64,000 nucleotides of DNA from the sequence record OP688485. One strand, written 5' to 3'. Numbering within the stretch: position 1 is the first letter of the stretch; every line of letters begins with the position of its first letter. The notes beneath the pieces were generated by a model. That model did not search any database. It saw only the letters and a program-made list of their open reading frames with translations, and had not been told where the DNA came from. Below, piece by piece: positions 3,539 to 29,591 of the stretch. The DNA comes from Escherichia phage EP_H11. The translations under genes and the position numbers were made by a program.

Positions 3539-3745
3539 ATGGGATATAAGCTCTTTGAAACTAAGGAGCAGGAGGAGCACTTCCTGAAGATGATTCGGGA
3601 AGGCTCCGCCATGAATACTCCTCGCAGTCCTGACGATCCTGGGTATAGAAGCGGATGTAAGTCTATTACCCAGGAATTCAGTTCAACAGTCTACCGCTCT
3701 CAGCATCCTTATGTGAGCGGAGGTAACTTAGCTAAGGTCCGCTAA
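3539..3745 (+). CDS. hypothetical protein
   Basis: 68 aa ORF. Confidence 0.4.
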   Translation: MGYKLFETKEQEEHFLKMIREGSAMNTPRSPDDPGYRSGCKSITQEFSSTVYRSQHPYVSGGNLAKVR

Positions 3746-3895
3746 TGGAATGGGTGAGAGCATTGATGGTCATGAGTAGGCTAAAGCCTATCTGTCCAGA
3801 TGACATAATCCGGACTCGTGATGGATTAGTTATGTATCGTCAGGGTCACTTATCTGACCAGGATAAATCTGAAATCGGAATCTATAGGTTCGCTG

Positions 3896-4273
3896 ATGGC
3901 TTTTAAATTAATGGACAGAACTAAGATCCTACACACTGCTGTGGAGAATGGTGGTTATGAATGCCGTACAGATAATAATTCTGTGAACATGGCAAATATC
4001 TCTACCTGTCTGAAGCTGGTGAGCGAAGGATTACTATTTCACGGAACTACTGAACAGGATGCTTACGACAAGCAAGTTAAGTGGTTCCATCCGACTCTTA
4101 CTGGTATCTTAGTAGATACTCAGGAGAAACTGGCTTACCTCATTAATCGGGGTAAGCCTCTATCTAAGAGGAAGCCTGAGATCCTGAATGCTAAACGTAT
4201 TCTGGAGGATAAGCCTAACCTCGCATCTGTATTGAACGAAGATATCTTGAAATTAATTAGGGATTATAAATAA
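3896..4273 (+). CDS. hypothetical protein
   Basis: 125 aa ORF. Confidence 0.45.
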   Translation: MAFKLMDRTKILHTAVENGGYECRTDNNSVNMANISTCLKLVSEGLLFHGTTEQDAYDKQVKWFHPTLTGILVDTQEKLAYLINRGKPLSKRKPEILNAKRILEDKPNLASVLNEDILKLIRDYK

Positions 4274-4515
4274 TGGCTATTCTGGTATTTGCCAAAGATC
4301 AACGGCAGTATAACGATTACATTCGCTCCCAGCATCTTAACCGTTCTGATGCTGTCTACGCCAGCTGCGTTAATAAGCTGCGTGGTCTATTTCCTAAGCC
4401 TACTGAGATGCACTTGCTGCCTAACTGGCATCATAGCGGTCCGTCCCAGATGGCTATGGAAAAAGCTAAGACTCTCTTTCCACAAGCAGTAGAGAAGTCT
4501 ATCGATCAGTGGTAA
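4273..4515 (+). CDS. hypothetical protein
   Basis: 80 aa ORF, start overlaps upstream stop. Confidence 0.45.
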   Translation: MAILVFAKDQRQYNDYIRSQHLNRSDAVYASCVNKLRGLFPKPTEMHLLPNWHHSGPSQMAMEKAKTLFPQAVEKSIDQW

Positions 4516-4518
4516 AAT

Positions 4519-4620
4519 TATTTTTCAAATAAACGAATTATGAACGGGTTTAAAGCCCGTTCTTTTGGGTGGGGCGGCTTCCGGCGGCTCCAATCCGCTA
4601 ACTTAGTATAATCTAATTTT
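4519..4620 (+). repeat. ~90-bp intergenic repeat element, copy 2 (contains hairpin GAACGGG/CCCGTTC plus T-run and a TATAAT hexamer)
   Basis: aligned by eye to 1021-1116; 3-prime part TAGTATAATCTAAT recurs at 2502-2516. Confidence 0.6.
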
Positions 4621-4630
4621 GGAGAAAATA

Positions 4631-4738
4631 ATGTCAACTAAACTCATCCGCTTCGTAGATCGTTATAGCTGGGCTCTGGTATTTGGCGTGAGCTTTGCAT
4701 TTTGGGCTGTTGTCTACTCTATCTTCCACTTCGCATAA
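4631..4738 (+). CDS. putative small hydrophobic membrane protein (35 aa)
   Basis: ATG 4631 preceded by GGAG; MSTKLIRFVDRYSWALVFGVSFAFWAVVYSIFHFA; below ORF-track length cut-off. Confidence 0.35.
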   Translation: MSTKLIRFVDRYSWALVFGVSFAFWAVVYSIFHFA

Positions 4739-4749
4739 GGAACTCTATC

Positions 4750-5121
4750 ATGACTAACTTAGAAAAAGACGTTACCGTTTGTCGTGTTGATTCTTACCAG
4801 CCTGGTGAGCGTACAATGCTGTCTAACTCCACTTACCTGGAGGGAAGTCACTGCCTAGCCTACTTCGTGATGGATCCTAAAGCTAACCCAGAAGTCTATG
4901 ATGAGTGGAAGGCTAAAATCCACGAAGCCTCAAAAGCTAATACTGGCCTGATGGTTACATACGGTCCTCGCACTCCTAAGTGGCCTGGCATCTTCGGTTC
5001 TCCGAATCTCTGGTGTGTTGATCTTAGTGAAGGCGACACAGCTCGTTATGTCAAGCTGATGTCTATGCTCCTTCCTAGTCTGGAAGGAATTGTGGGTCTC
5101 GAGCAAGTTCAGGTGCGATAA
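4750..5121 (+). CDS. hypothetical protein
   Basis: internal ATG of ORF 4702..5121 with AAGGA RBS. Confidence 0.5.
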   Translation: MTNLEKDVTVCRVDSYQPGERTMLSNSTYLEGSHCLAYFVMDPKANPEVYDEWKAKIHEASKANTGLMVTYGPRTPKWPGIFGSPNLWCVDLSEGDTARYVKLMSMLLPSLEGIVGLEQVQVR

Positions 5122-5286
5122 AATGAAGATTCCGACTCTTGATCAATTACTCACCACAGCAATGCACACGGTGATTCGTCGTCTGGTCTGGAATATCCCT
5201 AAAAAGTATTTCTGGATGGTGGTGTTGGCCACCATCATTATCAGCGGATTCGCCACTTTTAGAACTCTGTTTTGGAGCCTGTTAGG

Positions 5287-27624: not shown

Positions 27625-27637
27625 ATTAATCTACACA

Positions 27638-27680
27638 AAAATGGGACTCATTCGTGATAGGGATGAGTCCCATTTATTTA
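27638..27680. terminator. bidirectional intrinsic terminator between convergent early and late blocks
   Basis: ~14-bp stem AAATGGGACTCATT / GATGAGTCCCATTT flanked by A-run on one side and T-run on the other. Confidence 0.8.
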
Positions 27681-28010
27681 GCGCTTAAAGATGCCCATAA
27701 TAGCATCGTTAAACAATCCTAACAGTACTGTAATAATCGCTAACGCACCGCTCCAGAATTTAATCTTGTCGTTTACTTCCTTAATCTCCTTCCTTAGATT
27801 ATCCTGCTCATCTTCAAGGCCAGAAATCTTCTTAGACATGAAATTCTGTGCAACGACTAGCTCGCGGATATCCGCTAATATCTCCGTCTGCTTACGAGAA
27901 GACTCCATAAGTTGATCAAGGATTACTCCCTGAAACTTCTGGTTAGATTCAAGTCTCGCTAGCCTATCGAGTTGGCGCCCACCGAACTCAGACTCTTCCC
28001 TCTCGCGCAT
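27678..28010 (-). CDS. coiled-coil protein with C-terminal transmembrane anchor (lysis-associated)
   Basis: 110 aa; GAGGAA RBS; C-terminal WSGALAIITVLLGLF hydrophobic helix. Confidence 0.45.
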   Translation of the reverse strand: MREREESEFGGRQLDRLARLESNQKFQGVILDQLMESSRKQTEILADIRELVVAQNFMSKKISGLEDEQDNLRKEIKEVNDKIKFWSGALAIITVLLGLFNDAIMGIFKR

Positions 28011-28020
28011 ACAAGATTCC

Positions 28021-28230
28021 TCACTTCTGATTGCTCTCTAGGCAATCTATATAAGACACCAATTTAGCTAATTCAGCGTTAGGAATCCTGATCCCGTCTT
28101 TTTCCGCTATCGCTGCTATCGGTGGACGGTCGCATCTTATCTTCGGGGTCTGCATCTGCATTGGTAGGCTGTTGCAGCTTACCAAACTTAGACTCCCAAG
28201 CACCAGTAGGGTCGTTTTTAATTTCTTCAT
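28021..28230 (-). CDS. putative o-spanin (outer-membrane lipoprotein)
   Basis: MKKLKTTLLVLGSLSLVSC lipoprotein signal with lipobox; GGGAG RBS; begins inside the upstream gene in another frame. Confidence 0.55.
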   Translation of the reverse strand: MKKLKTTLLVLGSLSLVSCNSLPMQMQTPKIRCDRPPIAAIAEKDGIRIPNAELAKLVSYIDCLESNQK

Positions 28231-28309
28231 CTTTCTTCTCCCGAAAGCGCACCTGCATGGCAGACACGAGTAGGGTAATAAGCCGAAGAATAAGAGTAAG
28301 AGCTTTCAT
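28079..28309 (-). CDS. putative i-spanin (N-terminal TM, charged periplasmic region)
   Basis: AGGAG RBS 8 nt before ATG; MKALTLILRLITLLVSAM TM; ATGA overlap with upstream holin-like gene. Confidence 0.5.
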   Translation of the reverse strand: MKALTLILRLITLLVSAMQVRFREKKDEEIKNDPTGAWESKFGKLQQPTNADADPEDKMRPSTDSSDSGKRRDQDS

Positions 28310-28728
28310 ATCTTACTCCTTTTACCCTCTGGATTTTTGATCAGAGACTTGCCGTAATCAAGGGCATCAATAGCCTGGGTGGCCTTACTCACGAGATGTG
28401 GATCATCCTGAGTTTGGACTACATCGGAAAGAACCTGCTTAGCCTTATCCATGGTCTCTACTTTCTGCTCGTCCTGGGTAGCAGCTTTCTTATCTACTTT
28501 GGCAGCAGATTTAGGCAAGTTCAGAGCGATGAAGTTTAAAATGGACGCTGCATAACCGAGGTATTTCTTAACCACCCCAATGTATTCGTCGTCTTTAGTG
28601 TTAGGAGTTATTTTAGCGATCTTCTCGAGAGCTTGCACCAATACTGATGCGAGGCCGATTATAGCTAGTGCAAGAGCGATGTAATCATCGATCTTGGATC
28701 CATCAAGTACATCCAGGATATTGTCCAT
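28306..28728 (-). CDS. putative holin
   Basis: 140 aa with two hydrophobic helices and charged C-terminus, directly downstream of endolysin. Confidence 0.5.
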   Translation of the reverse strand: MDNILDVLDGSKIDDYIALALAIIGLASVLVQALEKIAKITPNTKDDEYIGVVKKYLGYAASILNFIALNLPKSAAKVDKKAATQDEQKVETMDKAKQVLSDVVQTQDDPHLVSKATQAIDALDYGKSLIKNPEGKRSKI

Positions 28729-28742
28729 TATTAATCACCATA

Positions 28743-29390
28743 TTAAAGAGTTAAAGTCTGATTTGCTCTGCGTAGTACAGGCAGTCTGTCAGGTACGGTC
28801 GCCACAGACCCATTTATCTTCTGGGTTACTTTGGTGAATGCGTCCTGATCTGCTAATTGATTTAATTTATTTTTATCCCAGAACCACCCTGCAGTAAGCA
28901 TGATCGTTTCGAAATCAGTCTCTACTAACTCTGGATCTTCTACCAAACGGTCATCCCCAAAGATACTCAAGGAGGCCTCTCGATAGTTAGCTCTACCAGT
29001 TAGATGCATTGCCCCACGGCCAATATACTTATACCCGTCTCCGCTAGCCGGAGTTCCGTTACCCATGCGATTAGCATACACCTGATTGGCTAACTTCTCA
29101 GGGTCGCGTATGTAAGCATTAGCATTAAGCTTACCAGGTTCACCTCGAAGAGTAAATCTACTAGGCCACACAGCTACCAGACGAGACGCAGAGGTATAAT
29201 ACAGGGACTCCACAAACTTAGTGTAATCCCTAGTTTCAAAGGCAGTCTGCGCCATAAAATAGCGCAGACGACGATTGGTATTGATACCATAACGCTCGAT
29301 AGTAGTATTAATGGCGGGTAGCAGCTTTTCCAGCACTTCTGTTGAAGTTGTTGGGAGGAACTTCTTCAGCTGGTCAAGTGTAACGCTCAT
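28743..29390 (-). CDS. endolysin, glycoside hydrolase family 19-like
   Basis: YIGRGAMHLTGRANY and surrounding segment resemble GH19 chitinase/lysozyme catalytic core. Confidence 0.7.
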   Translation of the reverse strand: MSVTLDQLKKFLPTTSTEVLEKLLPAINTTIERYGINTNRRLRYFMAQTAFETRDYTKFVESLYYTSASRLVAVWPSRFTLRGEPGKLNANAYIRDPEKLANQVYANRMGNGTPASGDGYKYIGRGAMHLTGRANYREASLSIFGDDRLVEDPELVETDFETIMLTAGWFWDKNKLNQLADQDAFTKVTQKINGSVATVPDRLPVLRRANQTLTL

Positions 29391-29414
29391 ATTATACCCC
29401 TACCTAGTTAAGGC

Positions 29415-29591
29415 TCACTTCCGAGCCTGTTTTCTCTGGAGAGCCGCCTGTAGCGACTCTATTTCGACCCATCCCTGTCCATTAAATCTCCATCTTTTAC
29501 CCTGTAAAGACTGGAAGATTGAGTTTACCGGAGCTATGGCTGGTATCTCTGTTTCGAATCCGGTCTTGAACCATGGTTCGTTGCTAGACAT
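29415..29591 (-). CDS. hypothetical small protein (58 aa)
   Basis: ATG preceded by AAGGAG; lies between tail fibre gene and endolysin; below ORF-track cut-off. Confidence 0.4.
   Translation of the reverse strand: MSSNEPWFKTGFETEIPAIAPVNSIFQSLQGKRWRFNGQGWVEIESLQAALQRKQARK

Follow-up and report, generated by a model that had tools for sequence, protein, structure and literature searches.

Seven small open reading frames of Escherichia phage EP_H11 are very probably protein-coding genes

Results

The small open reading frames and their surroundings

The window, by which we mean the whole stretch of 64,000 nucleotides of Escherichia phage EP_H11 (OP688485) that was analysed, contains seven small open reading frames, here called A to G. 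An earlier note had proposed them as genes, and each start codon that it gave is found in the sequence. The region was compared with about 20 related loci, comprising IME392, Logan/ENA assemblies at 90–97% identity and one relative at 65–80%. Third-position bias and intactness were scored in IME392 together with up to 12 loci derived from metagenomes. The strength of a ribosome-binding site was taken as the energy of its duplex with the anti-Shine-Dalgarno sequence, the median over 66 confident gene starts (−6.15 kcal/mol) serving as the reference. Membrane peptides were recognised by a mean Kyte-Doolittle hydropathy above 1.6 over 19 or more consecutive residues.

ORF A (plus strand, 3745–3906; annotated as WBU87669.1) encodes a soluble protein of 53 residues. 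The earlier note had it end at 3897 after 50 residues, but the stop codon is at 3904–3906. Its ATG overlaps the stop of the gene at 3539–3745 (TAATG); at its 3' end it shares 11 nt with the following gene, which begins at 3896. The protein is identical in 11 of 12 sequences, and a homologue of 50 residues in the divergent contig L022 (57% identity, dN/dS 0.15) keeps the gene order.

ORF B (plus strand, 4631–4738; WBU87672.1) encodes a 35-residue peptide with one predicted transmembrane helix, its basic N-terminus being followed by a hydrophobic stretch with a mean of 1.93 at residues 14–32. It is the first cistron past a promoter-like element predicted from the sequence, a TATAAT-type repeat (TCCGyTAAnnTAGTATAATCTAAT; plus strand, 4594–4617) that ends 13 nt upstream of the ATG; a second copy (2492–2515) stands 15 nt upstream of the 103-residue gene at 2531. 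Upstream of this lies an intrinsic-terminator-like hairpin (GAACGGG..CCCGTTC; plus strand, 4542–4562) followed by TTTT, the whole spanning 4542–4566 and sitting in a 59-nt repeat (4518–4576) with a second copy at 1020–1078. B is unbroken in 13 sequences (6 distinct) and is called as a 35-residue gene in eight related loci.

ORF C (plus strand, 13057–13227; WBU87686.1) has an AGGAGG ribosome-binding site and encodes a very basic protein of 56 residues (pI 10.7), in line with its earlier description as basic. Its coding-potential score is the best among the hits. A conserved intergenic motif, CCGCTCTTT-N9-AAAGGCTGTTAAAnTGT (plus strand, 13004–13042), ends 14 nt upstream of the ATG and is one of seven plus-strand copies; its core, AAGGCTGTTAA, has seven exact copies, and allowing one mismatch there are nine matches where 0.96 would be expected. 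The 80% identical homologue in L027 gives a dN/dS of 0.06, while L005 carries a divergent 51-residue allele (34% identity, E=2e-5) behind the same motif and ribosome-binding site. In all there are three allelic types, one of them highly divergent, exchanged precisely between conserved flanks; within an allelic type selection is purifying rather than diversifying. The last 8 nt of C overlap the 85-residue gene that follows, whose true span is 13220–13477 (plus strand). The mechanical ORF of 125 residues at 13100–13477 is over-extended at its 5' end, judging from the substitution phase. C had been placed in an otherwise unexplained gap; this ORF does overlap it, with its non-coding 5' part.

ORF D (plus strand, 14879–15058; WBU87693.1) begins with GTG, as the earlier note had it, and encodes an acidic protein of 59 residues (pI 4.3). 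It matches the family phrog_8773 with E=1.3e-18 and 67.9 bits, residues 4–56 aligning with positions 2–55 of the 61 in the profile, and tblastn finds homologues of 40–55% identity in unrelated phages, with E down to 8e-11: Pantoea phage G19, phages 15G/15b and two lambdoid E. coli phages. With G19 and the lambdoid phages D shares the pattern I-x-V-T...VP..A...DI.D[FWY]VDVE[FY]G...DNPC. The coding status of D is supported mainly by this family match. The predicted structure was unusable (pLDDT 57). D and its neighbour at 15061–15348 are absent from L027.

ORF E (plus strand, 15351–15455) is an unannotated, conserved frame of 34 codons; the earlier note had ended it at 15449 with 32 residues, but the stop lies at 15453–15455. 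It starts 2 nt past the stop of the gene at 15061–15348, and its last 7 nt lie within the following gene, of 65 residues (plus strand, 15449–15646). For this next gene, too, the mechanical ORF (15221–15646, 141 residues) is over-extended at its 5' end. A hydropathy of 2.61 at residues 7–25 bears out the description of E, like that of B, as hydrophobic, and both are probably single-pass inner-membrane peptides. E is 79% identical in L027 (dN/dS 0.24), and in L003 it is kept downstream of a 291-bp insertion. By a Markov model trained on long genes it scores weakly (−0.072 per nt), 30% of out-of-frame ORFs scoring as well.

ORF F (plus strand, 19837–19989; WBU87707.1) overlaps each neighbouring gene by 14 nt and encodes an acidic protein of 50 residues (pI 4.1) with an acidic C-terminal tail. 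Compared with IME392 it shows 11 synonymous changes and no non-synonymous ones. The zinc ribbon claimed for it is present as a pattern, C6-x2-C9 and C29-x2-C32 (CxxC-19-CxxC), but no Pfam zinc-ribbon model, nor any Pfam or NCBIfam family, matched at E≤1, and there was no match among PDB sequences. All four cysteines, which probably bind a zinc ion together, and the acidic tail are retained in the cluster variants. No homologue was found beyond the lineage among 1.84 billion representatives.

ORF G (minus strand, 29415–29591; WBU87729.1) encodes a protein of 58 residues behind an AAGGAG ribosome-binding site and lies in a late operon, between a 1014-residue DUF4815 gene (29601–32645) and a GH19 endolysin gene (28743–29390). 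A homologue of the same length (45% identity) occupies the same place upstream of the GH19 endolysin in L021. The predicted model (pLDDT 82.7) may bear a weak resemblance to trimerisation or N-terminal domains of fibres, the candidates being the P68 head fibre (6q3g), the N-terminal domain of Mtd (1yu0) and the trimerisation domain of collagen XV/XVIII (3n3f, 9bnb).

Substitution pattern and initiation signals

Conservation of the frames had been suggested as a check, and each ORF proved to be unbroken in every relative that holds its region. Counted at codon positions 1/2/3, the variable sites across relatives are 0/0/8 for A, 2/3/6 for B, 8/6/14 for C, 3/2/8 for D, 7/0/16 for E, 1/0/11 for F and 2/2/11 for G; in long genes, for comparison, they fall 18%/9%/72%. 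The bias is modest among close relatives for C (14 of 28 sites at the third position) and D (8 of 13), and reaches 11 of 12 for F. A, C and E are also retained in one more divergent relative, where the region of F was not recovered, while B and D would appear to be accessory cassettes, gained or lost between relatives.

The ribosome-binding sites had been described as good. This holds for C (−12.0 kcal/mol), G (−8.6), E (−6.8), D (−6.5) and B (−6.4), which are at least as strong as the reference median; F is moderate (−5.7), and A, with the TAATG overlap at its start, is weak (−3.8).

In related assemblies, six of the small ORFs were predicted as genes by independent gene callers. The exact products of A, B, C, D, F and G are present in a collection of 15 billion proteins; E is the only one of the seven with no entry there, and it is missing from all the public gene calls examined.

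Taken together, we consider it very likely (probability about 0.9) that all seven are genuine protein-coding cistrons in polycistronic operons of EP_H11, a phage of the IME392 group. Each has its own Shine-Dalgarno site or a start codon that overlaps a neighbour's stop and would couple their translation, and purifying selection acts on each in its own frame, which stays open in relatives. Coding status is strongly supported in every case but B, where the support is moderate.

Alternative explanations of the coding signals

For C, E and G, the source of the signals might instead be the longer mechanical ORFs that overlap them, at 13100–13477, 15221–15646 and 29311–29604, all on the plus strand. 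All three long frames are open in the window, and the last, of 97 residues, shares its third-codon positions with G and displays the same bias (4/2/15). The substitution phase, however, follows the frame of C to about 13200 and that of the next gene only from about 13256; likewise it follows the frame of E over 15351–15448 and the downstream frame only from 15523. In L027 both alternatives to the frame of E are closed by stops, and in L021 the strand opposite the G homologue is closed in all three frames. The 97-residue ORF moreover has no Shine-Dalgarno site (+0.1 kcal/mol) and would run 80 nt into the endolysin gene, and in relatives the gene callers picked the 85-residue, 65-residue and minus-strand 58-residue genes. 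It is therefore extremely unlikely that the longer frames are the source of the signals.

The case for B is the weakest of the seven. Here the conserved element could be the terminator and promoter module, with B a chance ORF, or a leader or upstream ORF in the 5' untranslated region of the gene at 4750–5121, whose translation would matter at most for coupling. An open frame of 35 codons is not rare by chance, the third-position bias of B is not significant, and its stop overlaps the ribosome-binding site of the gene at 4750–5121. Furthermore, B and the whole module are absent from the divergent L022, where genes of 80 and 123 residues abut, and no homologue of B was found outside the lineage. 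On the other hand, pN/pS is 0.29 and every replacement is to a hydrophobic or small residue within the 23-residue helix. The basic N-terminus and the hydrophobic stretch behind it fit a membrane peptide. Of the three frames the Markov model clearly favours frame 0, the Shine-Dalgarno site is well spaced, and the distance from the ATG to the promoter-like repeat matches that of the 103-residue gene at 2531. A non-functional B thus seems unlikely, and we prefer to regard it as a gene.

Discussion

Six of the seven genes (A, B, C, D, F and G) are already known, as GenBank 'hypothetical proteins' of EP_H11, so that the finding is correct but ordinary. As to function, searches of Pfam, PHROGs, NCBIfam and PDB sequences gave no match to a characterised inhibitor for any of the seven, and for A–F the only family match that they gave was phrog_8773 (for D). 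By their sequences and their place in the genome, A, C, D and F would be small soluble proteins of an early or middle plus-strand block that most likely bind a host or phage macromolecule; for the strongly basic C, nucleic acid or an acidic partner would be the natural guess.

The earlier note had remarked that small early phage proteins are often host-takeover inhibitors. For G this does not fit, since it is on the minus strand in a late operon and keeps its position in a distant phage. It would be expressed late, from a transcript shared with structural and lysis genes, and a small virion-associated or assembly protein, perhaps trimerising, seems more likely than a host-takeover factor.

For A–F the genomic setting is compatible with an early takeover role, in which they would bind and block host proteins as takeover or anti-defence inhibitors. 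Phage takeover proteins are often shorter than 100 residues, T7 Gp2 and Gp0.4 being examples. Like these and T4 Alc, A–F are small (below 60 residues), the basic C and the acidic D and F having an extreme charge, and the six lie in a densely packed early/middle operon beside known counter-defence genes, the block also encoding an Acb1-like anti-CBASS protein and a PinA-like Lon inhibitor that pass Pfam cut-offs. The swapped alleles of C, the presence or absence of B and D, and the occurrence of the D family in unrelated lytic and temperate phages point the same way. However, there is no sequence or profile similarity between A–F and Gp2, Gp0.4 or Alc, or to any characterised inhibitor, and G stands outside the early block. 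The block also holds genes of DNA metabolism (ligase, PolX, dCTP deaminase and dUTPase), so a role cannot be read from position alone, and the selection on C within an allelic type is purifying, not diversifying. We therefore regard a takeover role for A–F as possible but rather doubtful.

A narrower proposal is that E, as a new conserved membrane micropeptide coupled to the 65-residue gene, or C, as a swapped basic protein encoded first behind a phage-specific promoter motif, or both, are new host-interaction effectors. This is a speculative suggestion that is probably wrong; if true, they could be, for example, membrane-targeted exclusion or takeover factors in a group of E. coli phages that has received little study. 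B and E resemble other small phage membrane peptides in being single-pass and hydrophobic, but they are far shorter (34–35 residues) than the superinfection exclusion proteins Imm and Sp of T4 and have no homology to them. B also recalls the morons of lambdoid phages, having its own promoter-like element beside a terminator in a module present or absent between relatives; its terminator, however, lies upstream of its promoter and not downstream of B, which is not the classic layout. In this lineage D forms an accessory cassette, absent from the divergent relative. F is similar to Cys4 zinc-ribbon mini-proteins in its conserved cysteines, but its acidic tail is specific to the lineage.

The main value of these results is in annotation hygiene. 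A cut-off of 60 residues conceals at least eight real genes in a 30-kb block, and listing the longest ORFs misdraws two neighbours, those of C and E. For the sister phage IME392, the GenBank record lists only 85 features in 116 kb, none of them under the A/B and D matches, which were the ones checked. The phage group of EP_H11 is thought to carry hypermodified thymidine, and the small proteins, orphans of a rare phage lineage, are reasonable if unremarkable candidates for toxicity or interaction screens.

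Conservation of seven short open reading frames

All seven of the short open reading frames that the earlier note had picked out as plausible genes are found in the sequence of the window: A (3745–3906), B (4631–4738), C (13057–13227), D (14879–15058), E (15351–15455) and F (19837–19989) on the plus strand and G (29415–29591) on the minus strand. Two of the ends had been misread, the ORF at 3745 running to 3906 (53 aa) and that at 15351 to 15455 (34 aa). The finding is in itself an ordinary one, as six of the seven are already annotated, the exact protein being a GenBank entry of Escherichia phage EP_H11 labelled hypothetical protein. 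The window is accordingly EP_H11 itself or a phage almost identical to it. Literature searches on EP_H11 and vB_EcoM_IME392 turned up no studies of the small genes.

The strength of each SD, calculated as the energy of its duplex with the anti-SD, was set against the medians for 66 confident gene starts (−6.15 kcal/mol) and for all ATG and GTG codons (−2.4). The SDs of C (−12.0 kcal/mol), G (−8.6), E (−6.8), D (−6.5) and B (−6.4) are typical of the confident starts or better, that of F is moderate (−5.7 kcal/mol) and that of A, whose ATG overlaps an upstream stop codon, is weak (−3.8 kcal/mol). Of the predicted proteins, C has a pI of 10.7 and a net charge of +8, G a pI of 10.0, D a pI of 4.3 and F a pI of 4.1 with a Cys4 arrangement, while A is near neutral and B and E each have one predicted transmembrane helix.

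In the annotated phage collection the sole close relative of the window is Escherichia phage vB_EcoM_IME392 (~94% identity). Exact-protein look-ups in the Logan and ENA assemblies gave approximately 20 loci at 82–97% nucleotide identity, and there is a more divergent relative (65–80%) on two contigs, L022 and L027, from one sample. Exact look-ups of the B, D and G proteins matched 0 contigs, the D query having begun with V (GTG start), and no related loci were found among viral contigs with the DNA ligase as query.

Wherever a relative's sequence holds the region the corresponding ORF is intact. Variable sites at codon positions 1/2/3 number 0/0/8 for A, 2/3/6 for B, 8/6/14 for C, 3/2/8 for D, 7/0/16 for E, 1/0/11 for F and 2/2/11 for G; in the long genes used as a reference the substitutions are distributed 18/9/72%. 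Comparison with divergent homologues gives a dN/dS of 0.15 for A (57% identity), 0.06 for C (80%) and 0.24 for E (79%), and for G (45%) a pN of 0.44 and a pS of 0.86. For B pN/pS is 0.29 and the replacements are all hydrophobic or small residues; the entire B module is missing from L022. An apparent compensating indel in B was rejected as a BLAST alignment artefact from clustered substitutions. The earlier observation of small genes was correct, and we take the seven to be real genes, B less certainly than the others, and E to be a conserved micropeptide that has escaped annotation.

Homologues and models of the small proteins

An exhaustive phmmer search of 1.84 billion representatives, its query made up of every candidate but D in one chain, returned only the lineage's own clusters and homologues of A and G, with nothing for E. 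Degenerate DNA patterns for the C-terminus of E had no match in viral or JGI metagenome contigs. A homologue search with all seven proteins concatenated returned 0 and is uninformative, since its word prefilter overlooked proteins in the database that are identical to the queries. There was no match in NCBIfam, nor in PDB sequence searches with D, F and G. D alone among the seven belongs to a wider family, matching phrog_8773 (E = 1.3e-18), a family of unknown function, with homologues in Pantoea phage G19, phages 15G/15b and two lambdoid E. coli phages; a single-protein search with D found its own cluster only. L027 lacks both D and its 95-aa neighbour, and the structural model of D (pLDDT 57) was too poor for structural searching. 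F overlaps each of its two neighbours by 14 nt, and all four cysteines, with an acidic tail, are retained across its variants. A database cluster that groups C with an MnmG fragment is a clustering artefact, there being no real similarity.

Revised gene boundaries

Around C, third-position substitutions are in phase with the C frame up to ~13200 and with the other frame from ~13256. This switch implies that the real genes are 13057–13227 and 13220–13477 (+; 85 aa, the length that gene calls give in relatives), and that the 125-aa ORF 13100–13477 of the longest-ORF listing (60-aa threshold) is over-extended at its 5′ end. Similarly, the substitutions track the E frame up to 15410 and another frame from 15523, and in L027 the E frame alone is open, which together argue for genes at 15351–15455 and 15449–15646 (+; 65 aa); the listed ORF 15221–15646 is over-extended 5′, judged by substitution phase and the gene calls of relatives. 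In L003, another related locus, E is retained downstream of a 291-bp insertion (L003 5151–5441, between window positions 15349 and 15350). Within the insertion is a 96-aa ORF that has not been called; it has an N-terminal hydrophobic segment, takes over the RBS that E has in the window and is followed directly by E (TAATATG). The site looks like an insertion hot spot for accessory genes.

A further small gene, missing from the earlier list, is hidden within the listed 89-aa TTG ORF 18563–18832 (+): a 56-aa gene at 18662–18832 (variable sites 1/0/3), which gene calling has picked up in L015, L016 and L018, three assemblies of relatives. The adjoining 529 nt (18833–19361, +) gave no supported ORF, tRNA or Rfam match. 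Its first ~270 nt have 1–2 variable sites per 100 nt across five relatives, compared with 6–17 elsewhere, and the predicted RNA fold of the region has a z of −3.6 relative to shuffles. The stretch is a candidate non-coding RNA or replication or regulatory region.

Genome setting and the host-takeover reading

Plus-strand genes are tightly packed across 1–27624. Amongst them are an Acb1-like anti-CBASS protein (54–560) and a PinA-like Lon protease inhibitor (8582–9001), with Pfam scores of 27.5 and 37.1 bits respectively against a gathering cut-off of 27, so that known counter-defence and takeover functions are present in this block. Pfam also labels PolX, an NAD-dependent ligase, a glycosyltransferase-like protein, NADAR, a dCTP deaminase and a dUTPase there. 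EP_H11 has been grouped with phages that have SP15-like DNA polymerases and whose thymidine is probably hypermodified (preprint 10.1101/2025.03.26.645540). The suggestion that small early proteins of this kind are commonly host-takeover inhibitors is a generality that may apply to A–F, with whose context it is compatible. It does not suit G. The minus strand is used from 27678 onward, and G sits there with late lysis and structural genes, among them the GH19 endolysin of the lysis cassette and a 1014-aa DUF4815 protein.

The region of G could also be read as a plus-strand 97-aa ORF (29311–29604), which has its third positions in common with G; it has no SD and the counterpart frames are closed in L021, a distant contig with a G homologue, and it was rejected. 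The model of G (pLDDT 82.7) has four short strands and a helix. Its best neighbours in BFVD are N-terminal parts of tail, fibre and Mtd proteins (E from 8e-3); these matches have a theme in common but do not reach the usual thresholds.

Two segments of the plus strand, 9314–9563 and 25388–26048, are missing from IME392, the latter also from L003. They hold ORFs of 77 aa (9325–9558) and 216 aa (25401–26051), neither with a significant Pfam match.

Intergenic elements

A conserved intergenic motif of 39 nt, CCGCTCTTT-N9-AAAGGCTGTTAAAnTGT, has C as the first cistron after one of its copies. It is found at 886–924, 6047–6085, 13004–13042, 18199–18237, 19598–19635, 22311–22349 and 23386–23424. All 7 copies are on the plus strand, most of them 10–35 nt upstream of a gene start. 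The 11-nt core is matched exactly 7 times; if one mismatch is permitted there are 9 matches, where 0.96 would be expected. At 907–945 the core and an inverted copy form a hairpin followed by a T-run. L005 also has this motif and RBS, followed there by a very different 51-aa allele of C (34% identity, E = 2e-5). The motif probably acts as a phage-specific promoter or regulatory site; split RNA polymerase β′-like proteins are encoded by the phage.

B lies downstream of a terminator-like hairpin (4542–4562, +) and of a TATAAT-type repeat (4594–4617, +), a second copy of which precedes gene 2531 at equal spacing. We propose that the AAAGGCTGTTAAAnTGT motif and TAGTATAAT may act as promoters and 4542–4566 as a terminator. 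A 59-nt direct repeat (1020–1078 and 4518–4576, +; 86% identity) holds a terminator-like hairpin, and in the divergent relative L022 a copy of it follows a 123-aa gene.
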